From: Candidatus Poribacteria bacterium
GTDB lineage: Bacteria; Poribacteria; WGA-4E; WGA-3G
DNA: 64,000 nt
Assembly: GCA_965220325.1 (NCBI GenBank)
Contig: OZ244821.1
Span: 4,381,924-4,445,923 of the forward strand
Direction: 5' to 3'
The translations under genes and the position numbers were made by a program. The notes under the pieces were generated by a model, which was not told the origin of the DNA, did not search any database, and saw only the letters and a program-made list of their open reading frames with translations. Positions 1 through 21,813 of this stretch are shown here, piece by piece (the first letter of the stretch is position 1; every line of letters begins with the position of its first letter).

Positions 1-488
1 GTTGCCATCTTGAAAGCGATTCGGAAGATATCCGGGTTTGCTTCTTCGTTTGCTTTCACAAGTTGGCTATGAAATGAATCGTTTCGCTGTTTGTTCTCAT
101 ATTCGTTGAGATAGATAGCAGTCTCCACGGCTTCACGTTGACAGAAATAGAGGCGTGGTTCATTTTCTGGATTGTTCCAATGCTCAAGGAGCCGCCGTGT
201 CGTTGGTGTTACACCGGGATAACCGCTCTGCCGCCACGCCGCCACCTGTGTCCGAACGCTGTTGATAAACGTGTTCGCCTCTCGGAGATCGCTATCGGGA
301 AGCTCAAATTGTAGTTGTGCTTCTCCTGACTGCTTTTTCGGTTTCGGAAACGGCATGAAGTATTCACTTCTGCGTCTACCGTCAGCAATCTCTTCGGTGA
401 TACCGCGGGCATTGAATTTGAAATGTCGTTTCGGTTCTTCAAACGGACTATTGATAACTGGGTTGTCTATGTTAACTTTTGCCATGTG
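1..488 (-). CDS. ResIII-type SF2 helicase / Type III restriction Res-subunit-like protein, N-terminal fragment (gene runs off window start)
   Basis: Minus-strand ATG at 486-488, only 9 nt after the stop of the PIN-like gene (497). Translation MAKVNIDNPVINSPFEEPKRHFKFNARGITEEIADGRRRSEYFMPFPKPKK...RLYFCQREAVETAIYLNEYENKQ...IAFKMAT stays open to position 1. It resembles N-termini of ResIII/Type III Res-like helicases (from memory). It is absent from the ORF track because there is no stop in the window. Confidence 0.4.
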
Positions 489-496
489 GATGCCTT

Positions 497-1048
497 TTAT
501 CTTCCTTTTGAATGCCGCCTTTTCTCGCGTCGTTCGTGTAAGTGACGGATGTTCTCCTCACAGATGAATTCAACTATCAAACCGTTCTCAACAAATAGTG
601 ATCGTAAAGGATACCATTGGCTATCTACTGATTGTAGGAGAGTCGCTTTTTGCTGATGGACATTCTCGTACACCACTGCTACGGCAATAAATTTTTGGTC
701 ATCTGAGTCGAAATCACTGAATACATCAGGGAGTTCTTCAAAACCCTTTTCACCCGTAGATGATGGTGTGATATGCACCTGCACACACTGCTCAGGATTT
801 TTATAATTGCGGATGAACCACTCCAAAAAGTGGCCACCTGCTCTATTATCTGTTGTTGAATTATTATCTTCAAGGTAGGTGTTATATTCATTGAGAATTA
901 TCCAATTATCGTCAATAACGACCTTTTCAGGCCCCTCAATAATTAAATCCAACCGCTCTTGGCACAATATTACACACTCGGGCCACGCTTGTTTGGACAT
1001 ACCCTTTGCAGCCAAAATAACATTTGTATCTACGACAACAGTGCTCAT
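497..1048 (-). CDS. PIN-like (possibly TOPRIM-like) Rossmann-fold nuclease candidate, paralog 1, 183 aa
   Basis: N-terminal MSTVVVDTNVILAA (hhhDTNhh is typical of PIN motif 1) and an acidic cluster DFDSDDQKFIAVAV. The start ATG overlaps the stop of the upstream ATPase (ATGA at 1045-1048). A diverged paralog lies at 2358-2885. Confidence 0.5.
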   Translation of the reverse strand: MSTVVVDTNVILAAKGMSKQAWPECVILCQERLDLIIEGPEKVVIDDNWIILNEYNTYLEDNNSTTDNRAGGHFLEWFIRNYKNPEQCVQVHITPSSTGEKGFEELPDVFSDFDSDDQKFIAVAVVYENVHQQKATLLQSVDSQWYPLRSLFVENGLIVEFICEENIRHLHERREKRRHSKGR

Positions 1049-2361
1049 TCACCCTCCGTTTCCTTCTGACGTTTCATCTGCTCACGTGTCATTTTAACAA
1101 GATCACCCCGGACATTACCAAAGAAGTCTGGTGGCCAATTTGTGATGTTGCCGAGCTCATCTACGCCTAATGATTTAATAGTAGAAACGCCGCTTTCGTT
1201 TTCACAAAAATAGAGTGCTGTATCACTTGCGGCAATCTTCTGTTCCGCGATGTGGAGTTGCAGACGCGTTAAGAGGTGTTCGCTGTGGCTCTCTATAAGA
1301 ATCTGGAGGTTCCGTTCGGTGATAGCTTCTATTAGCAGATCAGCAAAGTCGGCTTGCGCCTTCGGATGGAGGTGGATACCCGGCTGTTCTAAAATTAGCG
1401 TTGAACCTTCCGGGACATAGCAGCAATGCACCAACAAGGGAAACAGATCGGAGACTCCGTGCCCCATGTCTGCTAACGTGACCTCTGCACTGTTAGAAGT
1501 TGTTTGGAAGCGGACTTCGTAATTGTTATCGTCTAAGGAACCTTTGGGAACAAGTGAAAAGGAGTGAGCAAGTTCTAACTTTCGGAGCCATTTAGATATT
1601 CGCTCCTCAATTGAGACATTTTTTCCGTTGTGAGGGGTTGTTAATTGTCTGACGCGCGCGGAGAGTAACGCGTCAACGGCTTTATCGCCTTGCAGATCTA
1701 TCTCCTCCGGATGTGTCCTTTTCCAGTGATAGTGACGTTGTGGATGAACGCGAGTCGGACCGAGCGGATAGACGTTAGCAAATAGATTTTCAAACGCAGC
1801 GGAAAGCGGCGATAAAGATTGATCCGTTTCCCTTGCTCGGTGACCATAACAGTTTGTCCCGCCTATAATACCATGTGACTTCTTTCCATGGTAAAGTTTT
1901 CCATTTTGCCATCCTATCTTTTGAATAACCTCAGGGCCAACAGTGTAACAAAAACGCTCAATTGACAGCCCATGAGAGCCTCCTCGGATTGCAGTATCAA
2001 AAGTGAAACTATCAATATCCAACGGAGCCAGTTCATAATTTCCTATATGTTTGTTAATTTCTTGATAGGCTATGATATTTGACGGTTTCTTGAGTTTACA
2101 TCCAAACTCTAATTCGAGCAGTTCATTTTCTTTGTGTCCATGAATTACTTCACGGAAGCTGCCGAGATTGAGGAGTGATGTTTCGTCCCCAAAGAAGATA
2201 ACTTCTTCCCGCCCAATAGTCTGCTTTAGCAACAACAGCATTTGCAACAGGCTGCTCTTCCCAGAACTATTCGTCCCAAAGAAACCAGTCAGTGGAGCAA
2301 GTTTCACCTCACCGCTGTCTTTCCACGATTTGAAGTTTTTTACATGTATATGTGTAATCAT
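1045..2361 (-). CDS. ABC-type AAA_15/AAA_21-like ATPase with DUF3696-like C-terminus, copy 1, 438 aa
   Basis: Walker A GFFGTNSSGKSSLLQ at the N-terminus. Walker B / H-loop region near the C-terminus reads LILEQPGIHLHP...LQILIESHSEHLL, followed by the C-terminal NWPPDFFG motif. The start overlaps the stop of upstream PIN-like copy 2 (ATGA at 2358-2361). Confidence 0.7.
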   Translation of the reverse strand: MITHIHVKNFKSWKDSGEVKLAPLTGFFGTNSSGKSSLLQMLLLLKQTIGREEVIFFGDETSLLNLGSFREVIHGHKENELLELEFGCKLKKPSNIIAYQEINKHIGNYELAPLDIDSFTFDTAIRGGSHGLSIERFCYTVGPEVIQKIGWQNGKLYHGKKSHGIIGGTNCYGHRARETDQSLSPLSAAFENLFANVYPLGPTRVHPQRHYHWKRTHPEEIDLQGDKAVDALLSARVRQLTTPHNGKNVSIEERISKWLRKLELAHSFSLVPKGSLDDNNYEVRFQTTSNSAEVTLADMGHGVSDLFPLLVHCCYVPEGSTLILEQPGIHLHPKAQADFADLLIEAITERNLQILIESHSEHLLTRLQLHIAEQKIAASDTALYFCENESGVSTIKSLGVDELGNITNWPPDFFGNVRGDLVKMTREQMKRQKETEGE

Positions 2362-2885
2362 CTTTCTTTCCTTCCTTGGCGTGGACGTTGCATATCCTCC
2401 TTACAGATGAGGTTAACGCTAACTCCATGGTTTGCAAGCGCAGCCATAAATTGAAGCCATCCTCTATCTATCGCCAAGAGAATTGGCGGAGTTTGTCCAG
2501 TATCGCGTTTGTGTGCCAGAGCAACGGCAATGAATTTTCTGTCATCAGAATCAAAACTAATTAATACATTGTCATCGGGAAATTCTTCAAAATCAGTCCC
2601 ATTTCCAGCCAATGATGTAATATGTACCATTGTGCAGATCTCTGGGTTTCCAAGATTTTGTAGTAACCTTTTCACAAAGAGATCGCCAATGCCTTTTCGG
2701 GTGTTTGGACGCGTATTATCCTGGTACTCTCCCAAAATTCGCCTTTTGTTGTCAATAACCACCTTTTCATGTTGGTCAATAATTTGTTGAATTCGCTCTT
2801 GACAACGGTCTCTACAATCTTTACGTTTGTCATCTGTATCATTTGCGATCACAATAACGTTCGTATCTACAATAACAGCGTCCAT
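2358..2885 (-). CDS. PIN-like nuclease candidate, paralog 2, 175 aa
   Basis: MDAVIVDTNVIVIAND...ISFDSDDRKFIAVALA has the same motif architecture as the 497-1048 protein (about 40% identity by eye). The start ATG overlaps the TAA of the upstream ATPase by 1 nt (TAATG at 2883-2887). Confidence 0.5.
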   Translation of the reverse strand: MDAVIVDTNVIVIANDTDDKRKDCRDRCQERIQQIIDQHEKVVIDNKRRILGEYQDNTRPNTRKGIGDLFVKRLLQNLGNPEICTMVHITSLAGNGTDFEEFPDDNVLISFDSDDRKFIAVALAHKRDTGQTPPILLAIDRGWLQFMAALANHGVSVNLICKEDMQRPRQGRKER

Positions 2886-4234
2886 TAACCCTCCGCTCTC
2901 TTTTGACGTTCTCTTTGTGCTTCTGTCATAGCAAACAGATCTCCCATTTCGTCCCCAAAGAAATTTTCGGGCCAGTTCGCTATATTACCGAATTCATCCA
3001 TTTCTAACTTGTCAATTTCAGAAATACCTTCTTCATTACGGCAGAAATAGAGGGCAGTTTTATCAACGCTAATCTTTTCCTCAGCAATACGCCGCTGCAA
3101 CCGGTTTAAGAGGTGTTCGCTGTGGCTCTCCACCAAAATCTGAAGGTTGCGTTCCGTAATAACTTCTATCAGTAGGTCTGCAAGTTGGGATTGAACCTTC
3201 GGATGGAGATGCATGCCCGGTTGTTCCAAGATTAGTGTAGAACCCTCTGGAGCATAATAGCAATGCACTAACACTGGCAGAAATTGTGCTAACCCGTAAC
3301 CCATGTCAGCTAGCGTGACCTTCGCGCTATCAGGTGTCTTTTGAATAAGGACATCATAATCCCGATCTGTGCCTACACTACTCCGTTTAATAGAAAAGGC
3401 ATAACCAAGATCCATTTCTCGGAGCCACCAAGAGATTCGCTTCTCAATAGAGACATTTTTTCCTTCATAAGGCGTTGTTCGCTGATCCACGCGAGCGTTG
3501 AGTAGAGAGTCAATCATATTTTCGCCGCTTTGCCCGATGCTTTCAGGATGTGTTCCTTCCCAATGGTAGATACGTTTCGGTTGGACGCGAGTCGGACCGA
3601 GCGGATAGACGTGAGCAAATAGTCTCCTAAATTCAAATGCAAATCGGGTTATTGGATCGCGGCTTGGGTCAGGATGGTGGGATTGACCATAGATTTTTCC
3701 TGAGAAATTTCCCGTTATGACCTGCCCCTTATTTCCCGATTTAGTACGGGGACCAAAGACTATAGAAGGAGTGCTGAAATCACCGTTTACAACTTGCTCT
3801 TCATTTTCAGATTTAACGTGGTAATGACCTTTTTCAACAGAGACTCTGTTCTTTCTGCAAAAAATAGTAGCATTAAAGGTAAAACTCTCAACATTTAACG
3901 AAGCATCAATATAACCATTGAACTGATCACGGAGAGGGATAGTAAACGGCTCCTGGACCTTACATCCAAATTCCAACTCAAGCAAGGCATCTTCTTTATG
4001 CCCATGAATCACTTCACGGAAATTGCCGAGATTAACGAGAGATCCTTCATCACCGAAGAAGATAATTTCATTTAAATCTGGACGCTCTGCGGTCTGTTTA
4101 AGCAGCAGGAGCATCTGCAACAGGCTGCTCTTCCCAGAACTATTAGTCCCGAAAAAGCCTGTCAACGGTGCAAGTTTCACCTCGCCACTATCTTTCCACG
4201 ATTTGAAATTTTTCATCCGTATATGTGTAATCAT
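2885..4234 (-). CDS. ABC-type AAA_15/AAA_21-like ATPase with DUF3696-like C-terminus, copy 2, about 449 aa
   Basis: Start re-assigned to the ATG at 4232-4234 (MITHIRMKNFKSW, matching the paralog MITHIHVKNFKSW). It has a GGAGG Shine-Dalgarno 8 nt upstream; the ORF-track start at 4321 lacks an RBS. Walker A GTNSSGKSS; C-terminus LILEQPGMHLHP...ESHSEHLL...NWPENFFG. Confidence 0.7.
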   Translation of the reverse strand: MITHIRMKNFKSWKDSGEVKLAPLTGFFGTNSSGKSSLLQMLLLLKQTAERPDLNEIIFFGDEGSLVNLGNFREVIHGHKEDALLELEFGCKVQEPFTIPLRDQFNGYIDASLNVESFTFNATIFCRKNRVSVEKGHYHVKSENEEQVVNGDFSTPSIVFGPRTKSGNKGQVITGNFSGKIYGQSHHPDPSRDPITRFAFEFRRLFAHVYPLGPTRVQPKRIYHWEGTHPESIGQSGENMIDSLLNARVDQRTTPYEGKNVSIEKRISWWLREMDLGYAFSIKRSSVGTDRDYDVLIQKTPDSAKVTLADMGYGLAQFLPVLVHCYYAPEGSTLILEQPGMHLHPKVQSQLADLLIEVITERNLQILVESHSEHLLNRLQRRIAEEKISVDKTALYFCRNEEGISEIDKLEMDEFGNIANWPENFFGDEMGDLFAMTEAQRERQKRAEG

Positions 4235-4351
4235 TTTTTCTGCCTCCGTATTAACTCTATTATACGCAATTTCACGAGAAAATTCAAGCGGATCAATATA
4301 AAGTAGAACCAAGATCCACATCGAAAATTGAATGATCCTGAAATGAGATTT

Positions 4352-4404: not shown

Positions 4405-5325
4405 ATGGCGATTTTTGATACCCTTACCAAAACGCAAGCACAAACACACCCCATGGACTTCGTCAATTACTGCCTAAACTTTGAGCAAGACGAGGCTACT
4501 TTCGTTGAATTGATCGTACCGGAGCAACCTACGGTTGAAATGCACCAGGCAGATATCGTCATCAAAGTAGAACGCAACGGTCAAGAGATTCTGGTCCATT
4601 TCGAGTTTCAAACCACCGACAGTTATGATCCTGAGATGTCTCTGAGGATGGCAGGTTATATCATTCGGTTGGTTGAAACGTATCGGTTGCCGGTGTATTC
4701 AAGTGTTATCTACCTTCGACCGGATGCGGGTCGAAGGGACCGTGGCGTTTATGTGCAGAACATAGCGGAACATCAGATTTTCATTGAATATAAGGTTTTT
4801 CGGCTCATTGAGATGGACGGGCAGCGGATCCTTGATGCCAAACCTACAGGATTGCTCCCTTTCACGCCGCTGATGAAACGTCCGGCGGGTGTAGATGCTG
4901 AGCAATGGCTGCGCCGGTGTATCCAAACCGCCGATAGCGTTGATGTCTCGAACAAACCAGCGTACCTCGGCACCTTGGCGGTTTTGGGAAATTTAGTCTA
5001 TGAATCGGAAGTAATTTCACGTATCATTTCGGAGGAAACCATGCAGCAACGTAATATTATTGAATACTGGACAGAGAAAGCCACAGCAGAAGCACACCAA
5101 CAAGGCCTCAAGCAAGGCCTCGAGCAAGGTATGAGAGAACGGGCCCTTGAAGACATTCTTGAAGCATTGGAACTCCGATTACAGCCCGATGCTGCGAGCA
5201 CCTTCAAGCCCATATTAGAAACGATTGAGGATTCCCAACGTCTCAAGCAGCTGTTTCGCGCCGCACTCTTAGCTGAAAGCACAGAAGACTTCGCACAGGT
5301 TTTAGCGGCAGACAGAGGTGTATAA
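4405..5325 (+). CDS. Rpn-family recombination-promoting nuclease / putative transposase (PD-(D/E)XK, Transposase_31/DUF4351-like)
   Basis: ADIVIKVE...ILVHFEFQTT gives the D...E-x-Q catalytic motif of the Rpn/YhgA family. The C-terminal QQGLKQGLEQGMRE repeat region is typical of DUF4351 tails. A good RBS (aaaaggaaataga) precedes the ATG. Confidence 0.65.
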   Translation: MAIFDTLTKTQAQTHPMDFVNYCLNFEQDEATFVELIVPEQPTVEMHQADIVIKVERNGQEILVHFEFQTTDSYDPEMSLRMAGYIIRLVETYRLPVYSSVIYLRPDAGRRDRGVYVQNIAEHQIFIEYKVFRLIEMDGQRILDAKPTGLLPFTPLMKRPAGVDAEQWLRRCIQTADSVDVSNKPAYLGTLAVLGNLVYESEVISRIISEETMQQRNIIEYWTEKATAEAHQQGLKQGLEQGMRERALEDILEALELRLQPDAASTFKPILETIEDSQRLKQLFRAALLAESTEDFAQVLAADRGV

Positions 5326-5378: not shown

Positions 5379-8063
5379 CTACAAAATCTTATACTCTTTC
5401 ATCACCTCATCGCCGTAGTGATTGATGACTTTTACTGCGATTTTGCCGGTTTCAGGTTTTGCAAACGGTAGACTCTCTGTCCGATAAAGTGCTTCCCACG
5501 CCTCCGCGTCAATTTCCGAATTCAGGGCGCGCTTCAGCTGCTTATAAGGCTCATCCTCACCCGTGAAATAGGCATGTCGCACAAAAAACGCTTCACCGTT
5601 ATAAGCAGTATCAATGAACCAGCAAGCGATGTCTTCCGGTGTGTCGGAGCGGGTTAACCCCTGCTTTGGATCGTATACATCCACGCCCAAAAGTTTCACA
5701 GAGTGTGTCCCATCTTCATGATTCACAATCTCGACATCCGGTTCTCCAAACACCATGAACAGATTGCCTTGACCTGTGTTTTTAAGTTCGCGCACCATTA
5801 ACTCAGGACTCATCTTAACCGGTAGGATGGTAAGCCGTCCCATGCGTGTGTCCTCACCGGCGGTATAGCCTTCAAACGCAAAACCGGCAATAATGAGTAA
5901 ATCAAATCGCGGGGTTCGGCGCGCTGCTTCCTTCGCAGCCTCGTTTATCCACTGGCTACCCACAGTAATGGATTGGGGAGCGATACTAATAGCGACATTG
6001 GGCATATTGTTATCTGCATCGGTATACGCACCTTCTGCATGTAACCACTCACCGGGCAGTTCCTCCAACCAATCAAAGGTAATGCGCTGCCCCTGAAGGC
6101 GGTTTTGCACACCTCCTGTTTTCAGATGTTCAAGGATATGCTGGTGATAATCTTGTGAAACATCTGGGGCAGCAGGCGTTGGCGCAGCAGTCTCTGCATC
6201 AATAGAATCAAGCACGAAATGTGGCGATAAACTTTCTACAGTGAACGGACCTGTGACGCGAACCCGTTTTTTGTCTTCATGCGGTTGATCGTAGAGTATC
6301 TCTTTTTTTGCACGCCGTGCAGTTGAGGCATCCATGGCAAGTTGTCGTTCACGTTTGAGGTTGAGCCATTGACGATGTAAATTCTGGAATTCGGAGTCCC
6401 ATTCACTATCAGTCTCTGCTGGCACTTCCCACTCTTCCCAGTTTTGCCCCATGAGACGGTTCATTTCAGCACGCAGCGGATCCAGCTTTGCTGCATATTC
6501 GATATAGATGTCGTCAACCTCTGTGTTATTTGCCATGTCTGAGAGACTGATATCCGGGGCTGTTTTGTAAATAAAACCCTCCTTGATGTCGTCTGTATTT
6601 TCAAGACGATAGTAGGGATATTTGGCAGATATGAGGCGCGTACGTGCCAGTGCAAGTGCGACGCGTGAGGTATCTACTGTTATCCATCGTCTGCCCCACT
6701 GCTCTGCAACATAAGCAGTTGTGCCGCTACCACACGTCGGATCAAGCACGAGATCTCCAGGGTCCGTTGCCATGAGTACGCACCGTTGAATTACCTTAGG
6801 GTGAGTCTCTACAACGTACTTTCTTCCAGAACGACCTCCTGCTGTATCTATCCATAGGTTAGTAATCGGGTTCCCTGGTGAATCAACTGCATATCGGATA
6901 TAACGCAAGGCACTTCTTTTTCCAGTAAGTCTTTCCTGCTTTGCAAGTCGATTTAAACCTTCATTGCTCGCACTCCACGTTCTGGAACCAGGTGGAGTAA
7001 AAGTTTTTCCTTGAAATTCATATTCATCAGCATAACCTTGAGAACTCTGTGACGATACTGAAAGGTTTATAAATCTTCTGCTTCCTGGTGGCAAAAGCCC
7101 TGGATTTTCTTGCTCATCCCTTGTCATTCCACGCCTCGTTCCGTTTTCTAACTCAACCTGGGTGTAAGATTTAAGCAGAGGATCAGCTATGCGTTCATCC
7201 CATTCCATCCAAAGTTGTCGATACTTCACCATTTCCTTGTCTTTCGCATACCATAGGATATAATCTGATACTGACGCTAAGGAGGTAGATGAAGTCATAT
7301 TCGTACGAGTCCATGTAATTGTAGAGATAAAATTATTATCTCCGAAGATTTCATCTAATAAGCATCTAACACGGTGAACGTTCTCATCGCTAATCTGAAT
7401 AAAGATACTGCCGCTATCCGTTAGCAATTCACGGGCAACAGTAAGGCGATCGCGTAAATAAGCAAGGTAAGAATGGATGCCGAGTTCCCATGTATCTCGA
7501 AATGCTTTAACCTGTTCTGGTTGTGGTGTAACATCTTCTGCACCAGTATCACCAACTTCATTTTTGCGAGTGCTGACCTGCCAATTGCTGCTGAATTTAA
7601 TCCCGTACGGCGGATCAAAATAGATTATCTGCACCGCACCTTTGAGATGTTCTTTTTCGGCAAGCGAGTTCATCGCCGTAAGTGAATCACCTAAGATAAA
7701 ACGGTTGTGCCAGTTTTGTTCGTGTTCGTAGAATTCGATTTTTTGGTTGAAATCAAGACCGTCGAAACCTTCAAAGAGCAACTCTATCTGCTCTGATTCT
7801 CGCCGCTTTTGTGCGCGAAGGTTTTCAATAATCGCTTGGGGTTGGATATGTTCTTGCGTGTAGATAGGTACGGCTGGCACTTCAAGATCGCTATCGTTCT
7901 GTTGGTCCTTGCCTTTCCAGACGAGTTGCGGGTCAAGTGCTACGTCGCGCGGGTAACGGGTGGGTGCGTTTTCTTCATCTTCAGCGAATCCGCTTAATTC
8001 TTGGGTCGGGTTGTTCGGAAGTGTGTCAGGGTGTTCGTAATGGTCAATCGGTTTTTTCGGCAT
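5379..8063 (-). CDS. Beta-class N6-adenine/N4-cytosine DNA methyltransferase (Type III Mod-like), ~894 aa, with a C-terminal domain of unknown function
   Basis: Motif IV IIYFDPPYG lies about 290 aa before motif I TCGSGTTAYVAEQWGRRWITVD, the beta-class order with an intervening target-recognition domain as in Type III Mod. Start re-assigned to the ATG at 8061-8063 (MPKKPIDHY), which has an AAGGAG RBS; the ORF-track start at 8213 has none. Confidence 0.75.
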   Translation of the reverse strand: MPKKPIDHYEHPDTLPNNPTQELSGFAEDEENAPTRYPRDVALDPQLVWKGKDQQNDSDLEVPAVPIYTQEHIQPQAIIENLRAQKRRESEQIELLFEGFDGLDFNQKIEFYEHEQNWHNRFILGDSLTAMNSLAEKEHLKGAVQIIYFDPPYGIKFSSNWQVSTRKNEVGDTGAEDVTPQPEQVKAFRDTWELGIHSYLAYLRDRLTVARELLTDSGSIFIQISDENVHRVRCLLDEIFGDNNFISTITWTRTNMTSSTSLASVSDYILWYAKDKEMVKYRQLWMEWDERIADPLLKSYTQVELENGTRRGMTRDEQENPGLLPPGSRRFINLSVSSQSSQGYADEYEFQGKTFTPPGSRTWSASNEGLNRLAKQERLTGKRSALRYIRYAVDSPGNPITNLWIDTAGGRSGRKYVVETHPKVIQRCVLMATDPGDLVLDPTCGSGTTAYVAEQWGRRWITVDTSRVALALARTRLISAKYPYYRLENTDDIKEGFIYKTAPDISLSDMANNTEVDDIYIEYAAKLDPLRAEMNRLMGQNWEEWEVPAETDSEWDSEFQNLHRQWLNLKRERQLAMDASTARRAKKEILYDQPHEDKKRVRVTGPFTVESLSPHFVLDSIDAETAAPTPAAPDVSQDYHQHILEHLKTGGVQNRLQGQRITFDWLEELPGEWLHAEGAYTDADNNMPNVAISIAPQSITVGSQWINEAAKEAARRTPRFDLLIIAGFAFEGYTAGEDTRMGRLTILPVKMSPELMVRELKNTGQGNLFMVFGEPDVEIVNHEDGTHSVKLLGVDVYDPKQGLTRSDTPEDIACWFIDTAYNGEAFFVRHAYFTGEDEPYKQLKRALNSEIDAEAWEALYRTESLPFAKPETGKIAVKVINHYGDEVMKEYKIL

Positions 8064-8142
8064 AGAATCTCCTTTGCTGTTGGCTAAAGATGATGCCTCA
8101 TTTTTTTCGTGAATGCTTGCGAATCTAAATACGTTGGTAGAT

Positions 8143-8520
8143 TCATGGGCGGACGATCTGTTGTTGTTTGAGTGCTTCGATTTCTTGTGTGAGTGTCTCA
8201 ATCTGTTTTTCAAGAGTCTGATCTTTTCTGCTACGCCTGCTTGCTAAGATGCCCCACACTGTTGCACCGATGGCAAGAATCGCTAAAGGGATACCAATGC
8301 AAGCGATAATGATGTTATTGAGTCTGTCGAAATTCTTTTCAAGGCTCGCAAATTTGTCGTCAACTCCCTGAAATTTGTCGTCAATCTTTTCATTTAGATT
8401 CTTAATTTCGGTTTTTATCACCGCGATTTCGGTCTCTACATCCATCTGTGGTGTTTGACAGAGTGCTGGAAACCCAGCGATAGCACCTAAAAGTAGTGAA
8501 AGTGCAAGAACATATTTCAT
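8143..8520 (-). CDS. Hypothetical secreted/membrane-anchored coiled-coil protein
   Basis: Start at the ATG at 8518-8520 (MKYVLALSLLLGAIAGFPALC signal peptide) with an AAGGAG RBS. Central coiled coil; C-terminal TM helix IIIACIGIPLAILAIGATVWGILA. Confidence 0.4.
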   Translation of the reverse strand: MKYVLALSLLLGAIAGFPALCQTPQMDVETEIAVIKTEIKNLNEKIDDKFQGVDDKFASLEKNFDRLNNIIIACIGIPLAILAIGATVWGILASRRSRKDQTLEKQIETLTQEIEALKQQQIVRP

Positions 8521-8576: not shown

Positions 8577-8858
8577 CTAGCGTGTAATGCACACCCTACG
8601 GGGGTTGAAGAAACGGGAAAATTGCTGCGTCTCCCACACAATAGATCCGATGTCGCTGCCTTTGTTACGATTACAATATGAACACGCGTAAGCGAGATTA
8701 CTTTCTTGGGTAGAGCCTCCATGTTTCTCGCTAAGAATGTGATCTATCTGACAACCAAAGTAAGTATCCTCTTCACGAATCAGACAGTATTCACAAAGGC
8801 TTTTGGCGCGGGCCCTAACCAACTCTCGTAAGGCAACGGGGATATAAGTCTTACTCAT
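8577..8858 (-). CDS. HNH endonuclease (small, 93 aa)
   Basis: CEYC...CQIDHILSEKHGG...NLAYACSYCNRNK carries the HNH and zinc-ligand motifs. Confidence 0.7.
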   Translation of the reverse strand: MSKTYIPVALRELVRARAKSLCEYCLIREEDTYFGCQIDHILSEKHGGSTQESNLAYACSYCNRNKGSDIGSIVWETQQFSRFFNPRRVCITR

Positions 8859-9093
8859 TTTTTAAATAGTATCGAGCGCGAGATTTAGCGAGCCGCATCA
8901 GATGTTCAAGTTGCAAACAGTGATTGAGTTCTGCTGTTTCTTCAGAGGTTAGTCCTGTCGTCTTTTCGCGGTGGATGAGATCTGAAAGACGCTCTTTTGC
9001 CGCCTCGGATGGACAAAAGTCTATTAAATTTTGCGGGGTTGTCCCTGCTGCAATAAAATCAACGATTTCTTGATATGCAGGTGATATGTACAT
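8851..9093 (-). CDS. Small conserved hypothetical protein, likely partner of the HNH endonuclease (overlaps its start by 8 nt)
   Basis: 80-aa helical protein (MYISPAYQEIVDFIAAG...LEHLMRLAKSRA). The 8-nt overlap with the HNH gene suggests a two-gene module. Confidence 0.4.
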   Translation of the reverse strand: MYISPAYQEIVDFIAAGTTPQNLIDFCPSEAAKERLSDLIHREKTTGLTSEETAELNHCLQLEHLMRLAKSRARYYLKNE

Positions 9094-10883: not shown

Positions 10884-11147
10884 TTGGAAAAAATACGCGG
10901 ATTGATTTCTCTATTGGAATCTGGCGTTGAAGACTATGACGCGCAGGTAAAGGTTCTCCAGTCAGAACGCCTGAAATATATCCGGCTCTCTATAACGGAC
11001 GGGTTCGGCACGGAAGAAGGCGACTCTAAACAGTCGTGGCTACTTCACCTCAAGCAACTCGAAGATTCACTCGCCCTGAGACGGAAAACCATACGACAGG
11101 CAGTTGTAGATACCGCAGAAGATATTCAGAAAGAGGAAAACGCATAA
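10884..11147 (+). CDS. Small hypothetical helical protein (87 aa, TTG start) translationally coupled to the downstream CRTAC1-like gene
   Basis: AAGGAG (10871-10876) lies 7 nt before the TTG at 10884. The stop TAA overlaps the ATG of the next gene (TAATG at 11145-11149). Confidence 0.45.
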   Translation: MEKIRGLISLLESGVEDYDAQVKVLQSERLKYIRLSITDGFGTEEGDSKQSWLLHLKQLEDSLALRRKTIRQAVVDTAEDIQKEENA

Positions 11148-14100
11148 TGTTGAAATTTCTGTCTCCAAGTATAGAAAAGTGTTTGAAGTATATCCTGCTG
11201 TTGGTATCGTGTTTTGCTGCCCCAATAGGATGGACGCAAGAGACAGATAACAGCAGAATTATTGAAGAAGCGATCCGGCACCAGAATTTAGGGTTGGCAT
11301 ACCTGGAGGAGTCACAGCCCTCAAAAGCAGTCGAGGAATTTACGACGCTTATTGAACTGCTCCCCAACGAAGCGATCGGTTATGGAAACCTTGCTGTCGC
11401 GCACTTACGTCTACAACAGGCAGACACCGCTGAAGAATGGGTGAAACGCGGCATCGCTGTCGCGCCGATGGATAGCCGGTTACATTTCATCTTGTCCGAA
11501 GTCTACCAACTGCAAGACGGAAAAACGAATTTAGCCGTAGAAGCGATGAAGGAAGCTGTTCGGTTGGACGCCGATGAATTAGAATTTCGCTACAAACTGG
11601 TGCGTCACTACCTTGGACGCCGAAACGACCCGGAAGCACAGCGGGAGGCTGTCCGGCATCTTCAAGAACTGCATGCCCGATCACCGGTGAATATCGTTGT
11701 GCTGATGAAGTTGACACTCGGATTGTTAGCGCAGGAGGACCTCGAAGCTGCTGGAGACCTCTGTCAAGACCTAATGCTCCTTTTAGGCGATACCGACCCA
11801 GACAAACTCAAATATCTTACACAAGGAATAGAAGCAATAGCACAAGGTGACCTAAAACTCGCTACACGAAATATAAAAATTTTCGAGAACGTAAATCGGG
11901 CAAGTCCCCGTTATCAGCAGGGTATCGGCGAATTGGTGACCGACATCCTTGGGCATCCGATAGAGACATTCAGTCCAGGGTTTCGCGCGCGAATCATCGC
12001 TAAAGAGAGCCTACCGATTGAAGTGGAATTTGTGGATGTTACTGAACAACTTGGACTTGCCGATGTGAATCCGCCTTTAGATTTCAAGACACCCGTTGCT
12101 GTCATTCTTATGGACCACGATAATGACGGGGATCTGGATCTGCATATAGTCGCGGCGAACGGTTTTGAGTTGTATCGAAATATAGGAAACCAGTTTGAGC
12201 CTATTAACACATACGTAGCGGACGAAGACACCCATATCATTGTTGCGGATTTAAATAAGGATGGCATACAGGATTATTTATTCCAAAGTGTTAAGGGAAT
12301 CGGGCATATATGGAGGGATACGGAAGGGAATGAAGGGGCATCTGACCTCATCATATATAAAAATCCCAGAACTGAGATAGGGATCCTTCATCCTGTCGAT
12401 TATGATCACGATGGCGATCTGGACCTCTTTACAACCGGTACCACGATGTATCGGAATAATAGCGATGATAAAAATAAAGGGGACGAAAGGTTTACCGATG
12501 TTAGTGAACAGGCTTTTGTAAAAACAGCCGCGCCACAATCCGTACCTGCCGAAGCATTCTCCGCTGATTTTGATGACGATGGCGATATAGATATTTTTAC
12601 GATACACCGCGAAACCGGATGTACCCTTTACGATAACCTCCGTCAAGGGAAACTTCGCGCGATTTCCGATGAGACAGGAATTCACCAGGATATGCATTAC
12701 ACGGCAGCTGCTATCGGTGATTATGACAACGATGGCGACATTGATATCTTCTTAGCAACAGCAGCTCGTATGCACCTCTACCTTAATAGAGGCGACGGAA
12801 GTTTTGTAGACGACCCACGCTTAGAGGCGGATGTACAAGGTATATCCCCTACACTCTTAAAAAACATAGATTACGATAACGACGGATTTGTTGACCTCTG
12901 GGTGAGTGGTGAAGATGGGATGTTTCTGTTCCGAAACGACGGAACCGGGCAGTTCATGGAACCGTATCCGCTAATAGAAACTGGCACACCAACGGAGGGA
13001 GCGATCCTCCACAAGGCAACCGCTGGAGCCGTAGGCGATTATGACAATGACGGCGACCTTGACCTCTTTTTTATCAACCTCAAAGGAGAACTTCGAGCAT
13101 TACAAAACAATGGTGGCAATCGAAATAAATGGATACAGGTGCGATTGGAAGGTATCACTACTGGAAACAATAAAGTCAATAGGGACGGCATCGGCTCGAA
13201 ACTGGAGGTGAAAGTCGGTGATCTGTATCAACTACAATATGTATCCGAACAGGTCTCCCATTTCGGGTTAGGCGCGTTTGACAAGGCGGATATTGTTCGT
13301 GTTGTCTGGACGAACGGCGTGCCGCAGAACGTCATCGAACCGCAAGCGAAACAACGGATTCTGGAGAAACAGATACTCAAAGGTTCCTGTCCGTTCTTAT
13401 ACGTCTACGATGGAGAGAAATACGAATTCGTTACTGACTTGCTCTGGCGCGCACCTTTGGGGCTTGTCACTTCAATGGGGTTCGTTGCTCCTGATGAAAC
13501 GCGGGACTTCGTGAAGATTTCCGGGACACAGATACAACCGAAAGATGGTAAGTATTCCATTCAGATTACCGAGGAGTTATGGGAAACCGCCTATTTTGAC
13601 GAGGTGAAACTGATCGCGGTGGACCACCCAGTAGGTACTGACATCTTCGTAAATGAGCAGTATGTTCCGCCGCCGTTTGCCGAATTCAAGGTTTACGGGG
13701 TCAAGGAGAAGCTGCACCCGAAATCCGCACGCAACCATCGGGGTGAAGATGTATCCGATGCTTTAAGAACGTCTGATTACCACTACGCCGTTGAACACGC
13801 ACCCGGTCCCTATCAAGGGGTCGTTGAACCGCATGCAATAGTTCTTGATCTCGGTGATGTACCGAATGATACGCCTGTGACGCTGTTCCTCACCGGCTGG
13901 ATTTTCCCGACGGATACGAGTATCAATGTTGCCCTGTTCCAAAACAGCGAAATTAATCCGAGTTTTCCGTCGGTTGCTGTAAAAGATAAAACAGGAGCGT
14001 GGGAAACCGTGATTGATATGATTGGGCTGCCGGCGGGGAAAAACAAGACGATTACCGTCGATCTAACGGGCAAATTTCTGTCGGATGACCGACACGTCCG

Positions 14101-14671
14101 AATTGAAACCGATATGCAGATTTACTGGGACGCAGCGTTTTTCACTGTCGGCAGGCAAGACGTACCGATAGAGATGACGACGTTGAACCCAGATAGCGCG
14201 GATCTGCACTACCGCGGCTTTTCGGAGATGTATCGTCCAAACGCACACGCGCCGCACCTGTTCAACTACCAAAAAGTGACGACCGATGCCCAATGGCGCG
14301 ATCTGGCAGGTTATTATACGCGCTACGGAGATGTCAATCCGCTGTTACAAGAGGTTGATGATATGTATGTAATCCTTAATGCTGGCGATGAAATCACGGT
14401 TGAGTTTGATGCCTCACGCTTGCCGGTACTAAAACCTGGATGGGCTCGCGATTTTATTCTCTATAGCGACGGATGGGACAAAGATGGCGACATCAATACG
14501 CTCACCTCGCAGACAGTTGAACCGCTGCCGTTTCACGGGATGTCTGCCTATCCGTATCCAGACACTGAGCATTATCCAGATAGCGAAGCGCATCGCCGGT
14601 ATCGGCTTGAATATAATACCCGACGCGTGGAGCACCGTTTACCGCTATTATCGACAGAAGTAAAACCATGA
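11147..14671 (+). CDS. Secreted TPR + FG-GAP/VCBS repeat + ASPIC/UnbV domain protein (CRTAC1 family), ~1174 aa
   Basis: Start at 11147 (MLKFLSPSIEKCLKYILLLVSCFAAPIGWTQE signal peptide), in frame with the ORF-track 11036 start. TPR helices precede six FG-GAP/VCBS calcium loops (DHDNDGDLDL, DYDHDGDLDL, DFDDDGDIDI, DYDNDGDIDI, DYDNDGFVDL, DYDNDGDLDL). The UnbV/ASPIC core follows (GSKLEVKVGDLYQ...HFGLGAFDKADIVRVVWTNG). Confidence 0.8.
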   Translation: MLKFLSPSIEKCLKYILLLVSCFAAPIGWTQETDNSRIIEEAIRHQNLGLAYLEESQPSKAVEEFTTLIELLPNEAIGYGNLAVAHLRLQQADTAEEWVKRGIAVAPMDSRLHFILSEVYQLQDGKTNLAVEAMKEAVRLDADELEFRYKLVRHYLGRRNDPEAQREAVRHLQELHARSPVNIVVLMKLTLGLLAQEDLEAAGDLCQDLMLLLGDTDPDKLKYLTQGIEAIAQGDLKLATRNIKIFENVNRASPRYQQGIGELVTDILGHPIETFSPGFRARIIAKESLPIEVEFVDVTEQLGLADVNPPLDFKTPVAVILMDHDNDGDLDLHIVAANGFELYRNIGNQFEPINTYVADEDTHIIVADLNKDGIQDYLFQSVKGIGHIWRDTEGNEGASDLIIYKNPRTEIGILHPVDYDHDGDLDLFTTGTTMYRNNSDDKNKGDERFTDVSEQAFVKTAAPQSVPAEAFSADFDDDGDIDIFTIHRETGCTLYDNLRQGKLRAISDETGIHQDMHYTAAAIGDYDNDGDIDIFLATAARMHLYLNRGDGSFVDDPRLEADVQGISPTLLKNIDYDNDGFVDLWVSGEDGMFLFRNDGTGQFMEPYPLIETGTPTEGAILHKATAGAVGDYDNDGDLDLFFINLKGELRALQNNGGNRNKWIQVRLEGITTGNNKVNRDGIGSKLEVKVGDLYQLQYVSEQVSHFGLGAFDKADIVRVVWTNGVPQNVIEPQAKQRILEKQILKGSCPFLYVYDGEKYEFVTDLLWRAPLGLVTSMGFVAPDETRDFVKISGTQIQPKDGKYSIQITEELWETAYFDEVKLIAVDHPVGTDIFVNEQYVPPPFAEFKVYGVKEKLHPKSARNHRGEDVSDALRTSDYHYAVEHAPGPYQGVVEPHAIVLDLGDVPNDTPVTLFLTGWIFPTDTSINVALFQNSEINPSFPSVAVKDKTGAWETVIDMIGLPAGKNKTITVDLTGKFLSDDRHVRIETDMQIYWDAAFFTVGRQDVPIEMTTLNPDSADLHYRGFSEMYRPNAHAPHLFNYQKVTTDAQWRDLAGYYTRYGDVNPLLQEVDDMYVILNAGDEITVEFDASRLPVLKPGWARDFILYSDGWDKDGDINTLTSQTVEPLPFHGMSAYPYPDTEHYPDSEAHRRYRLEYNTRRVEHRLPLLSTEVKP

Positions 14672-16710
14672 AAACGAAACGCGTATTTATCACAGCTATT
14701 CTGTTGTTCATCTGCCCCGTATTCCCCCGCAATGGAATTACGCAAGACTCTACGCAATGGAAATTACCGGAGGGCGCAAAAGCACGCCTCTGTAAAGGAG
14801 AAATTCGTGGCATAAGTTTTTCGCCCGATGGCACCCAAATTGCTGTAGGCAGTGCTACCGGCGTTTGGCTCTACGATGCGCGCACCGGTGTTGAACGCAA
14901 ATTGCTTACCGATCATCTCTCAAGAACGGGTCTCGTGACGTTCTCACCCGACGGTAAAACCTTGGCGACTGGAGAGTATGACACAATCCTGATCTGGGAT
15001 GTTGCCACTGGCAATCTTTTGAAATCCATCAAAAGACAAAGGGCTCGGATACAGGCACTTAGAATCCTTGAAGATAATAAAACGCTTCTTTGTGAAAATT
15101 ACAACGGTTCGGTTCGATTGTGGGATGTTAGCACTGGACTTGAAATAAAGAACTTCGATCTGAAATCTTCAGATAGGTTTGGTGGTGTACTGAGTTCTGC
15201 GTTCGGGTACGAGGTTACCACTGCTGGCTTATATCTGAATAAAATTCAGGACAACGGTCTTTATGCGGTTGGCTACAAAAATGGCAAAATTCGGTTGAAG
15301 GATGCTACAACTGGCAAGCACCTGAAAACGTTTCAAGGTCCCAAAGGTTATATCAACCAATTGGTATTTTCCCCAGACGGCAACACCCTTGCTGTTAATA
15401 ACAGTAACGCTCCGATCCGTCTCTGGGACGTTAACACGGGGAAATTAATAAAAGACTTAACAAAAAAGGCAAAAATGTGGGGAATGCTCACTTTCTCTAA
15501 AGATGGTAAAACCTTGGCTTATCAGGGGCAGTTTGGTGACCTTGAGTCGATTGAGTTGTGGGATGTTGCTACGCAAACACTTCGTACGACGCTTGGTGAG
15601 GATATAGGCACCAACATACATATTTTCGCAGTCTCGCCGGATGCTAAAACGGTTGCCAGAGCGAATCGAAATGGTGAGATCCGAGTATGGGATGTGAACA
15701 CCGGTGACGAGTTGTCTGCCTTTTCAACAGGACATACAAAGCGGCTGACCGCGTTGGCGTTTTCACCGGACAACAGTACGATTGTAAGTGGACATATTAA
15801 CACGATTGCACTGTGGGATGCACGCAATTTTACGCAACTATCTAACGCCGTAGACCCCAAGGGATGGATTAATGCCTTGGTATTTTCACCTGATGGCAGC
15901 ACTGTAAGCGGCATAAAAAGTTTCGCATATAAGAAAAATACCCGCGGTCAACTCGTCAAGGAGGGTGTAAAAAGCACGTTGAGTACATGGGATACACGTA
16001 CAGCAGATAAATTGTCTGATTTGACCGTTGAATCATACCAAGGCGAGGCACCGAAGATTCCAGGCGTGGGAGGAACGGCATCATCTTTCGTTGGAGGTGC
16101 TGCTGTCGTTGTGTTTTCTCAGAATGGTAACATGCTTGCTGCAGCCCTAAATGCAGAACAGGCGACTGAGGATTACCGATTTACTGTACATGTATGGGAT
16201 ATTCCTGATAGGAAGTTGAATTTTACGCTCAAAGGACATACGGACAAGGTTAATGCATTGGCACTCACCGGTGATGGTAAAATGCTTGCCAGTGGGAGTG
16301 ACGATGGCACAATTCAACTCTGGGATATAAGAATCGGGCTCCCGACGTTAAGCCTCCGCGCTGGCAAAACTGGTGCGTTAGCATTTTCCAACGATGGCAA
16401 AATTCTTGCAAGTGCAAACAATTCTGATAGCATCCAACTTTGGGATGTTACGACCGGTAGGCAATGGACATCTCTTAAAAGCGAAAACGGTTACATCACC
16501 GTTTTCGCATTCTCTACGGATGGAAAAATTCTTGCAAGTGGAGACCAGTATGGGGCAATTCAGTTGTGGGATATTCCCACTGGTAACATGTTGTCTACGC
16601 ACAAAGGCCATGTGAGTTGGATTAACTCGCTAGCGTTTTCATCTGACGGCAAAACACTCGTAAGTGGTGGCCAAGATGGTGCAATCTTTCTCTGGAACAT
16701 TCCACATTAA
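14668..16710 (+). CDS. Secreted WD40 beta-propeller repeat protein (680 aa)
   Basis: The start overlaps the upstream stop (ATGA). Signal peptide MKTKRVFITAILLFICPVFP. Many repeats of the FSPDG(K/N)TLA...D.T(I/V)RLWDV type. Confidence 0.8.
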   Translation: MKTKRVFITAILLFICPVFPRNGITQDSTQWKLPEGAKARLCKGEIRGISFSPDGTQIAVGSATGVWLYDARTGVERKLLTDHLSRTGLVTFSPDGKTLATGEYDTILIWDVATGNLLKSIKRQRARIQALRILEDNKTLLCENYNGSVRLWDVSTGLEIKNFDLKSSDRFGGVLSSAFGYEVTTAGLYLNKIQDNGLYAVGYKNGKIRLKDATTGKHLKTFQGPKGYINQLVFSPDGNTLAVNNSNAPIRLWDVNTGKLIKDLTKKAKMWGMLTFSKDGKTLAYQGQFGDLESIELWDVATQTLRTTLGEDIGTNIHIFAVSPDAKTVARANRNGEIRVWDVNTGDELSAFSTGHTKRLTALAFSPDNSTIVSGHINTIALWDARNFTQLSNAVDPKGWINALVFSPDGSTVSGIKSFAYKKNTRGQLVKEGVKSTLSTWDTRTADKLSDLTVESYQGEAPKIPGVGGTASSFVGGAAVVVFSQNGNMLAAALNAEQATEDYRFTVHVWDIPDRKLNFTLKGHTDKVNALALTGDGKMLASGSDDGTIQLWDIRIGLPTLSLRAGKTGALAFSNDGKILASANNSDSIQLWDVTTGRQWTSLKSENGYITVFAFSTDGKILASGDQYGAIQLWDIPTGNMLSTHKGHVSWINSLAFSSDGKTLVSGGQDGAIFLWNIPH

Positions 16711-17935: not shown

Positions 17936-18282
17936 CTAAAATAGACGCGGAAACCCGCGATGATGAGTCCATACCTTTTCCGCTCCGAGTGGATTGTCCG
18001 TTATTGGTGAGACCTCGGAGCGATGCTAAAAATATAATATCGTTTATTATATCAGATTTGAAGAAAGTGTATCAACTAAAAACGGAATTCACGTCGGTAC
18101 TTTTCGTTGATAGGATTTGTAACTTTATTGTTTTGGCAACGAAATTGTGACATGAAAAGAGTGATTGGAAAGATGTTAATTGGAAAATTTATTATGGAAA
18201 TTTTCGTGGATTTTTGGTATTATAAAGATGGTTTTATAATTCTTAATACATTTAATGATTGAACTTATATATCGGAGGAAAA

Positions 18283-21200: not shown

Positions 21201-21813
21201 GGAGGCACACCGTATCGATTCCGAGGTTTTTGTGGCGGGTATGATAACAGAGGTGACTAATATTATCACGAAAAAAGGAGACGCGATGGCGGTCCTTAGT
21301 TTCGAGGATTTGGAGGACACAGTGGAGGTCGTCGTTTTCCCGGACACATACAAAAAGGCGGGTGAACTCGTCGAAGGTAGAGCGGTCTGGATTCGTGGCA
21401 AGGTGAATATTAAACAGAACGGCAAAAGTCGGCGGGCTGATTCTGATGACGAACCTCAGCAAGAGGAACGCCAAATTCAAGCGGAACAGATCGTAGATAT
21501 CGCGTCTGTTAGCAGGGATCAGACGACGGCACTTGAAGTGATAATCCCGGAATCCGATCTCGAAAACACCGAAAAATTAGAGGCACTCCAGAAAATAGCG
21601 CAGGCTAACAAGGGTAAATTGGATCTGATTTTACGTCTCATGAGTCCTCGTTACGGCGAAGTCATCGCGCGGTGTGCTAAGAAATACAGTATCACAGACG
21701 AACCACAGGTTATTGAACAGGTTGAGAAATTGTTTGGTGAAAATTCTGTTAAACCGAGCAACCGCACCATACGGTCAAATAAGAGAAACGTCTCACAGAT
21801 AGGTTTCGTGTAA
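18283..21813 (+). CDS. dnaE: DNA polymerase III alpha subunit
   Basis: Start at the ATG at 18283 (GGAGG RBS): MATGFVHLHNHSEYSLLDGA (PHP domain), polymerase core and OB-fold; about 1176 aa. Confidence 0.95.
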   Translation: MATGFVHLHNHSEYSLLDGACRIEDMVNWAVENSVPAVALTDHGNMFGAWELYDKAKKAGVNPIVGCEVYVAPGDRRKRGKEQGGPYHLTLLAEDATGYQNLLKLVSLGYTEGFYSKPRIDMEILREYHHGIIALTGCIQGQVPQLICSSQRDEGIENFKMLMEIMGERNLYVEVQNHYIDKELQAYPIMVELAKEFNLPIVGTNDCHYLRKSDHEMHDVLLCIQMRRTVNDQQRMRFDNHFYFKNVDEMREALKDFPPEAISNTLEIANRCNLELGYGESVMPKYEVPEGYTNDSYLKELCYQGLREKYGDLSDEIRKRLDYELDIISQTGYSGYFLIVWDYVKYAHQQGYPLCARGSAASSLVLYALDVITFNPMDYDCLFERFLNLERISPPDIDIDFADRAREHVIDYLVKKYGEASVGKVATFATLGAKAAIKDVGRALETPLEDVVRLTELIPVTPGITIDEALEEVPDFQKLADSPEYRELMDLSKAVEGMKRHVSCHASAIVVSNGPLTNYVPLFKDKHGQVASQFEGKTVEDVGIVKLDSLGLRSLTETYDCLQMIKTNHGKDIKLEDIPFDDEKTYSLISEGLIPGLFQLEKSGGMYRVVTQLKPDNFEEFSAIPALYRPGPIESGTMQDFIDRKNGLQKVTYMHPSLENALKNTYGVCIYQEQVMQIARDMAGFTLGEADVLRSAMGKKNPELLKAQREKFVEGAVKKGIAQQEAEDVFTQLEPFAGYAFNKSHTVAYSMLAYRMAYLKTHYPHEFMAAMMTGEASYSEKITRYRAECKKLADFLAVEINLLPPDVNSSKREFTVDNNNICFGLVAVKSVGDSAIEAIVEAREQGGSFTSLQDFCERVDIKQVNKRAIESLIMSGAFDSLEGHRAQHLESVDSVMKVAQSAQADRDRGQMSLFGDVEEAPAMTITLPEVPEYGVLERLMQEKEHLGFYVSGHPLEEYNDIIENYTTASTRTLEAHRIDSEVFVAGMITEVTNIITKKGDAMAVLSFEDLEDTVEVVVFPDTYKKAGELVEGRAVWIRGKVNIKQNGKSRRADSDDEPQQEERQIQAEQIVDIASVSRDQTTALEVIIPESDLENTEKLEALQKIAQANKGKLDLILRLMSPRYGEVIARCAKKYSITDEPQVIEQVEKLFGENSVKPSNRTIRSNKRNVSQIGFV

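Follow-up and report, generated by a model that had tools for sequence, protein, structure and literature searches.

What might two adjacent ATP-binding cassette (ABC) ATPases be doing when both carry a glutamine where the Walker B motif should supply the catalytic glutamate, and when their middles differ far more than their ends? The question is raised by positions 497-4234 of the 64,000-nt stretch of Candidatus Poribacteria DNA analyzed here (contig OZ244821.1; hereafter the window), in which an earlier note, made from the sequence alone, had picked out the two ATPases as paralogs. We found that the interval is filled by four genes on the minus strand in the order ATPase2-PIN2-ATPase1-PIN1, with starts and stops overlapping by 1-4 nt, and that they make up two tandem copies of HEC-03, a two-gene anti-phage system of an ABC ATPase and a VapC-like PIN nuclease that is protective in E. 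coli and requires both genes (Payne et al., bioRxiv 10.1101/2024.01.29.577857). HEC-03 stands for Hma-embedded candidate 03, the system having been found through its embedding in helicase/methylase systems (bioRxiv 10.1101/2024.01.29.577857). The tandem pair is therefore a fresh member of a known system and not a new kind of system. The earlier note lacked this context, in which each ATPase is paired with a PIN gene and the pairs lie within a type III restriction-modification (RM) operon.

ATPase2 (2885-4234; 449 aa), the first gene of the operon, matched the PADLOC model of the HEC-03 ATPase (PDLC04148) at 1.5e-109 over residues 1-444 of 449, the top match among about 100 PADLOC matches, and ATPase1 (1045-2361; 438 aa), which is 56% identical to ATPase2 overall, matched it at 2.6e-100. 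For both proteins the second-best model was NsnB of the Menshen system, well below HEC-03 at about 1e-64 (2e-65 for ATPase2), and in Pfam both show AAA_15 and AAA_21 followed by a C-terminal DUF3696 (2e-23, 9e-21 and 8e-11 for ATPase2). Their partners are PIN2 (2358-2885; 175 aa), a PIN-like nuclease whose start shares 1 nt with the ATPase2 stop (TAATG), and PIN1 (497-1048; 183 aa), another PIN-like nuclease, whose start shares 4 nt with the ATPase1 stop; the overlap between the ATPase1 start and the PIN2 stop is likewise 4 nt long (ATGA). These two small proteins are 37% identical to each other, match the HEC-03 PIN model (PDLC04147) at 2.4e-25 (PIN1) and 3e-23 (PIN2) over ~155 of its 159 positions, and give weak PIN_3 and PIN_4 matches in Pfam (PIN_3 in the case of PIN2). 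NCBIfam contained no model for the ATPases or the PINs except weak N-terminal matches to MADS3 and Rad50, and PIN2 searched against PDB sequences returned only chance matches to designed ankyrin repeats, which we disregarded. Naming is inverted between sources: in PADLOC, HEC-03A is the PIN model (159 positions) and HEC-03B the ATPase model (458 positions), whereas in the preprint the ATPase is HEC-03A and the PIN is HEC-03B.

The embedding in a helicase/methylase system, of Hma or RM type, that characterizes HEC-03 is also found here. Upstream of the array lies a type III-like DNA methyltransferase (Mod) on the same strand (5379-8213; PADLOC MTase_III 5e-255, Pfam N6_N4_Mtase 3e-35), and 12 nt after PIN1 begins the N-terminus of a ResIII-type restriction/helicase subunit (1-485, minus strand), which exits the left edge of the window and whose translation matches the ResIII gene of the closest related locus, L078. 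The order Mod, one to three HEC-03 modules, Res recurs in at least 23 Poribacteria loci, including L078, and the Mod and Res genes are orthologous among them. Of 77 loci, 19 have tandem arrays, and every one of these is from Poribacteria, the loci from other lineages being single-module, and the nearest relatives of the window genes (54-91% identity) all come from metagenome-assembled genomes of Candidatus Poribacteria, a sponge symbiont. Family membership, gene order and embedding between Mod and Res are thus directly observed; with the ATPase switch mechanism discussed below included in the claim, we consider it likely that positions 497-4234 hold two tandem HEC-03 modules in one translationally coupled operon between type III-like Mod and Res genes.

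Both ATPases do read LILEQPG, as had been noted, at 3215-3238 in ATPase2 (as TLILEQPG, with E337 as the acidic residue and Q338, codon 3221-3223, at the catalytic-Glu position) and at 1378-1401 in ATPase1 (TLILEQPG, with E325 and Q326, the latter encoded at 1384-1386). That this is the Walker B strand, with glutamine at the catalytic-Glu position, is supported by alignments with OLD, Rad50, FtsE and PtuA. By phmmer, stLILEQPGMHLHP aligned with gtvIIEEPEMYLHP of the Thermus OLD nuclease (6p74), and LILEQ also aligned with the Rad50 LILDEP and with the FtsE Walker B; a profile of the family aligned its ILEQPEIHLHP with wild-type retron PtuA (LIDEIE; VLIDEIELHLHP) and also with deposited PtuA chains that bear Q at this position (LIDQIE; VLIDQIELHLHP; 9nnk, 9nnb). 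A canonical ABC Walker B reads hhhh[D/E] and then the catalytic Glu; here the acidic residue is kept as E337 and E325, and the next residue is Gln. Of the two substitutions that had been claimed, Asp to Glu and Glu to Gln, the former is ordinary in the OLD/AAA_15 clade (EE in OLD).

Nor is the EQ pair an oddity of these paralogs, as it had first appeared: the DUF3696/HEC-03 ATPases have it as their family-wide consensus. Among close homologs (59-91% identity) EQ is found in 120 of 120, as EQPG in 116 and EQPD in 4. In a diverse alignment of 146 sequences (A2), which contains both window ATPases and underlies the family profile, the catalytic-Glu position is Q in 127, H in 17, K in 1 and E in 1, and far from being universal, the DE form is thus approached by a single member. 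A regular-expression search of 150 representatives of 50%-identity clusters found EQPE in 120, EHPE in 15 and EEPE in 1, in agreement with the alignment except for one additional N. What does distinguish the Poribacteria clade is EQPG, in which the Glu at +2, present in the EQPE of the wider family, is lost as well. The Walker B oddity is accordingly a family trait of a known, validated defence system, and it is already in print for the sister family NsnB, the Menshen ATPase, which was published with EN at Walker B, R at the Q-loop and GxG at the signature (PMC12065111).

The remaining motifs of the nucleotide site are a mixture of lost and kept. The Q-loop Gln is replaced by Arg (LGPTR in the window ATPases, YLGPLR in the family) and the LSGGQ signature by D-x-G-x-G (GxG). 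The family as a whole retains its P-loop, the acidic residue of Walker B and the H-loop His within an E-S-H-S-E-H block, which in ATPase2 lies at 3113-3130 (ESHSEH). The Walker A motif is intact in both copies as GTNSSGKS (4127-4150 in ATPase2, 2254-2277 in ATPase1), and this GxxxxGK[ST] motif together with an ABC head fold places the proteins in the ABC superfamily. The fold is predicted by an AlphaFold2 (AF2) model of ATPase2 built on the diverse alignment (pLDDT 91.9, pTM 0.91); a model from a shallower alignment, limited to 121 close homologs, reached a pLDDT of only 60.7 and gave low Foldseek TM-scores. In the better model, the strand 333-337 ends at E337/Q338 and is followed by a helix, the strand 365-369 and the H-loop residue His371. 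Foldseek retrieved the heads of SMC, Rad50, retron PtuA, OLD, GajA and Septu PtuA with probability 1.0 but with TM-scores of only about 0.4-0.47, pointing to an ABC head that has no close solved relative. Because the catalytic Glu, the Q-loop Gln and the LSGGQ signature are lost while the P-loop, E337 and the H-loop His stay, we suggest that the HEC-03 ATPase works as a nucleotide-dependent switch and not as a motor, with canonical hydrolysis presumably lacking. A switch or sensor role, already raised in the earlier note, would also fit the proposed workings of related defence ABC ATPases (PMC12065111; bioRxiv 10.1101/2024.01.29.577857).

The variable middle corresponds to residues 81-200 of ATPase2 (3635-3994), part of the segment called Insert 1, and to residues ~81-189 of ATPase1 (1795-2121). 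In the AF2 model it follows the P-loop helix, precedes the S2/R-loop strand and consists of three long beta-strands (85-103, 107-127 and 130-140) followed by a low-confidence loop (141-190). When the paralogs are compared in windows of 30 residues, identity over residues ~88-200 is 15-35%, with gaps, and the global figure is 31%. Careful alignment did not make the central region as conserved as its surroundings: mean entropy among 74 Poribacteria ATPases is 2.2-3.0 bit at 81-200 vs 0.1-0.5 bit at 21-40 and 321-380, the 120-residue middle stretches across 424 columns of the diverse family alignment, and many library matches align solely to the flanks of this segment. The description of the middle as unalignable nevertheless applies only to the loop at ~141-190 and is slightly too strong for the strands at 85-140, which are recognizably homologous, the cassettes being distantly related to each other (28-54% by tblastn).

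These middles behave as exchangeable modules, in line with the earlier suggestion of a diversifying domain. Across 2701 pairs of proteins, identity in the middle, which ranges from 10 to 99%, is nearly independent of identity in the C-terminal part (Spearman rho 0.12); some pairs are at least 85% identical in the C-terminal part yet only 18-36% in the middle, and the reverse is also found. Grouped at 50% identity, the middles of the 74 proteins fall into at least 40 types, and the largest backbone type alone bears 24 of them. A recent event is visible at another locus, L009, whose tandem paralogs (3099-4343 and 6001-7236) are 100% identical in nucleotide sequence over codons ~64-215, whereas the flanks of this tract are 45-93% identical and the 3' halves only 45-80%; the identical stretch is a recent gene-conversion tract over the variable cassette.

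A second exchange is seen in the window itself when it is compared with L078, which has the same four-gene array. The ATPase2 ortholog of L078 (5880-7221) has its first ~43 codons out of frame, with a 52-aa gene called at 5880-6038 and then a 406-aa gene; its upstream DNA is 88% matched to the window, and the gene is thus frameshifted, either as a pseudogene or through an assembly error (9x contig). PIN1 is 97% identical between the two loci (dS, the synonymous divergence, 0.05), as is the tail of ATPase1 (dS 0.13). The ATPase1 middle, in contrast, shares 30% amino acid identity with its L078 ortholog, window positions 1797-2087 have no syntenic nucleotide match by blastn, and the nearest cassettes, ~54% identical, sit on other backbones: the ATPase1 cassette has been replaced relative to L078. 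The ATPase2 cassette differs from that of L078 by 12 nonsynonymous and 3 synonymous changes (nonsynonymous divergence, dN, 0.044; dS 0.039), compared with 3.5 and 21.5 in the core next to it (Fisher p 1.3e-4), and dS along ATPase2 runs from 0.04 to 1.6 within this single gene. Insert 1 is thus hypervariable and mosaic, and is exchanged as a cassette via recombination among family members. Over the few usable pairs, the median dN/dS (omega) is 0.13 in the head, 0.37 in the middle and 0.16 in the C-terminal part, although most pairs are saturated or mosaic and only 15 were usable for the middle. Within the limits of these 15 pairs the value is raised in the middle, where constraint is clearly relaxed or diversifying, without proof of positive selection.

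The C-terminal part behaves differently from the middle. Residues 201-449 are 62% identical between the paralogs overall and 77-83% around the Walker B and H-loop, making a previous estimate of about 70% fair for the blocks on which it was based. Its end is the DUF3696 tail (residues 381-449 at 2888-3094 in ATPase2; residues 370-438 at 1048-1254 in ATPase1), modeled by AF2 as two strands and a C-terminal helix. Identity of the tail (381-449) follows identity of the downstream PIN protein with a rho of 0.73, vs 0.02-0.11 for the other ATPase regions. This co-variation fits a published AF3 model in which the two DUF3696 tails of NsnB clamp the inactive PIN-like domain (inPIN) of NsnC (PMC12065111), and by analogy the tail of ATPase2 is probably the docking site for PIN2. 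Residues D7, D45, E53, D115 and D140 are invariant in 85 PIN partners; given this conservation, the partners are probably active nucleases, unlike the inactive Menshen PIN.

Put together, these observations allow a mechanism to be proposed. ATP binding would drive engagement of the ATPase heads, and with canonical hydrolysis crippled the engaged state would be long-lived, turnover being slow if it occurs. The DUF3696 tails of the ATPase dimer may restrain the cognate PIN nuclease, and hypervariable Insert 1 may provide the surface on which a phage-derived trigger is recognized. Once the trigger is bound, or once the nucleotide state changes, the PIN would be freed or activated; it may then cut RNA and so halt infection. 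In evolution, tail and PIN move together and Insert 1 is exchanged as a cassette. The two modules of the window differ both in their cassettes and in their tail/PIN pairs, and would thereby respond to more triggers while avoiding cross-talk. We put forward, tentatively and as a proposal that may well not survive in all its parts, that HEC-03 ATPases are hydrolysis-crippled switches with swappable Insert 1 trigger cassettes; that Poribacteria maintain between one and three such modules at a fixed place within a type III RM operon and reshuffle the cassettes across modules and genomes by recombination, each tail remaining matched to its own PIN; and that the outcome would be a modular, cassette-shuffling repertoire of innate immune receptors based on an ABC head with no need for ATP hydrolysis. 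Whether ATP binding or hydrolysis is decisive in ABC-ATPase defence was left as an open question by the authors of HEC-03 (bioRxiv 10.1101/2024.01.29.577857), and the family-wide absence of the catalytic Glu (Q or H in 144 of 146, E in 1) is a natural experiment that points to binding. Cassette mosaicism and tail-PIN co-variation indicate which parts of the protein probably do the sensing and which keep hold of the effector, and could be of use for HEC-03, Menshen and other DUF3696 ATPases.

The chief alternative to a binding switch is that these ATPases still hydrolyze, with E369, E373, H371 or the Q/H residue itself acting as base or polarizer and with a slow but essential turnover serving as timer or reset. 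We regard this as somewhat unlikely, although the H-loop block lends it substance: among the 146 diverse members, E369, H371 and S372 never vary and conservation of E373 and H374 is at least 90%, and a Glu at -2 from the H-loop His is absent from the OLD (STH) and PtuA (TTH) alignments. His also occupies the Q position in about 12% of the family, and the wider family retains a Glu two residues past Q (EQPE). The window clade, however, is without that +2 Glu too (EQPG in 116 of 120), and the catalytic position accepts Q, H, N and K but almost never E (1 of 146), which suggests selection against, or indifference to, a canonical base; in addition, the Q-loop and signature motifs that aid canonical ABC hydrolysis are also replaced (PMC12065111). 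The pairs could instead be toxin-antitoxin or addiction modules that stabilize the RM island and sense no phage, the PIN being the toxin and the ATPase an antitoxin-like regulator (compare AbiEii-type AAA_21). The Pfam description of AAA_21 as a 'putative AbiEii toxin, type IV TA system' and the VapC-like character of the PIN speak for such a role, as does the toxicity in E. coli of HEC-03 when expressed without induction control (bioRxiv 10.1101/2024.01.29.577857). We think it quite improbable, since HEC-03 cut phage plaquing by orders of magnitude with both genes needed (bioRxiv 10.1101/2024.01.29.577857), and abortive-infection defence and toxin-antitoxin behavior can coexist.

Two further alternatives concern the variable middle and the 5' ends. 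Insert 1 could be a tolerant, drifting surface insert that is carried along by recombination and has no recognition role, in which case specificity would be set by another component such as the PIN or the flanking RM system. A middle omega that is mostly below 1 (it exceeds 1 in 7% of 15 usable pairs) and the loop-like, low-confidence character of residues 141-190 would be expected of such an insert, but the strands at 85-140 are predicted with high confidence and their fold is kept across cassettes, whole cassettes are exchanged with breakpoints within conserved flanks, and the ratio of 12:3 in the ATPase2 cassette against 3.5:21.5 in its core was obtained from the same gene pair. The HEC authors, moreover, propose variation in Insert 1 and Insert 2 as the determinant of trigger specificity (bioRxiv 10.1101/2024.01.29.577857), and we judge a purely tolerant insert unlikely. 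It had also been suggested that recent gene conversion between the window paralogs homogenized their 5' ends. The similarity behind this idea is real: the paralogs agree at 46 of the first 48 residues and at 84% of the first 144 nt, and conversion between tandem paralogs does happen in the HEC-03 family, as at L009. The antisense open reading frames (ORFs) at 2168-2410 and 4023-4301, which had been cited in the same connection, are present and are merely the reverse-strand shadow of this conserved coding stretch. Identity at the three codon positions is 92%, 98% and 62.5%, however, with a longest identical run of 29 nt, and codons 1-48 (dN 0.027, dS 1.53, pS 0.65) are as diverged at synonymous sites as the C-terminal part is (dS 1.50, pS 0.65), for which reason we reject 5' conversion. 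The head residues are 89-98% conserved across the 74 Poribacteria homologs, which come from dozens of genomes, purifying selection on the P-loop region suffices to explain this conservation, and the known L009 tract spans the middle and not the head; conversion of the 5' ends is exceedingly improbable.

Several points do weigh against our preferred reading of a binding switch with a sensing cassette and a PIN-docking tail. Loss of the catalytic Glu lowers the ATPase activity of the ABC proteins that have been studied, abolition not being universal, and the family has the other invariant acidic and His residues near the site listed above (E369, E373, H371). The middle omega, with its median of 0.37, rarely exceeds 1, and relaxed constraint fits it as well as positive selection does. 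The DNA encoding the tail adjoins the PIN gene, and physical linkage alone could give their co-variation with no need for protein contact. Finally, the HEC-03 homolog that was tested experimentally comes from another organism than the copies described here.

Comparison with known systems places the locus closest to HEC-03 itself, with which it shares a DUF3696-tailed ABC ATPase, a VapC-like PIN, strong full-length matches to the profile models and an embedding of restriction type. It differs in that a single operon holds two modules in tandem (as many as three in its relatives) and in the EQPG of its clade compared with the family EQPE. The HEC-03 preprint does not describe Insert 1 cassette exchange or tail-PIN co-variation, and these two features are what the present analysis adds, together with the finding that Poribacteria conservedly embed between one and three modules in a type III RM operon. 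Menshen NsnB resembles the window ATPases in its OLD-ABC head and DUF3696 tail (reflected in the NsnB model match), in a Walker B with E followed by N/Q in place of DE, in R for the Q-loop Gln and in GxG for SGG, and its partner NsnC has a PIN-like domain that two DUF3696 tails are predicted to clamp (PMC12065111). In Menshen, however, the PIN of NsnC is inactive and fused to a separate toxin domain, whereas here it stands alone with its catalytic acidic residues, and polymorphism has been reported for NsnA and NsnC and not for the ATPase insert (PMC12065111). Menshen was rejected as an assignment on the grounds of its missing NsnA (ParB/DUF262), which was not found among the array neighbors (Mod, one ORF without a DUF262 match, and Res), and of the stand-alone 175-183 aa PINs with conserved catalytic residues.

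More distant are PARIS (AriA/AriB), Septu and retron PtuA/PtuB, Gabija GajA and OLD, all of which have an ABC ATPase of the OLD/AAA_15 clade controlling a nuclease effector, a Walker B block of the type hhhh[DE]E.E.hLHP and a THS-type H-loop, and which are also the Foldseek neighbors. They differ in having Toprim or HNH effectors instead of a PIN and in lacking the DUF3696 tail, and OLD (EE) and PtuA (DE) keep the catalytic Glu. PARIS, OLD and Gabija were rejected: neither the ATPases nor their partners have a Toprim (DUF4435) match, and the AriA, GajA and Old profiles matched only partially and far more weakly. E-to-Q Walker B mutants are a standard means of trapping the ATP-engaged state of ABC and SMC ATPases, and such engineered proteins, including the PtuA LIDQIE chains and cohesin 'EQ' heads, have the same Gln at the catalytic-Glu position. 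Here, in contrast, the Gln is native and family-wide and occurs together with the loss of the Q-loop Gln and the signature, so the behavior of the mutants is not simply transferable to HEC-03 ATPases.

As to the surroundings of the operon, the true start of ATPase2 is the ATG at 4234 and not the ORF start at 4321; its homologs begin with MITHI, and a GGAGG motif lies just 5' of this ATG. A promoter-like site, TTGAAT-17-TATAAT, is found upstream of the operon at 4259-4287 on the minus strand, within the spurious N-terminal extension of the ORF, and is a candidate by consensus match only. Between Mod and the array, on the opposite strand, a 306-aa ORF (4405-5325, plus strand) has no Pfam match and gave a sub-threshold match to the Rpn family of recombination-promoting nucleases/putative transposases (E 0.005); L078 holds an HEPN_AbiU2 gene in the corresponding place, indicating an embedded slot with variable cargo. 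Further out, the large ORFs at 11036-14671 and 18259-21813 have no PADLOC match, and a 680-aa ORF at 14668-16710 (plus strand) matches PADLOC HEAT-ARM_XIII with its C-terminus (2e-23). Just upstream of Mod lies a small HNH endonuclease gene (8577-8858, minus strand; Pfam HNH 3e-12), which is overlapped and preceded by an 80-aa ORF with a weak DUF7667 match (8851-9093, minus strand), and these two may be another small defence or toxin pair.

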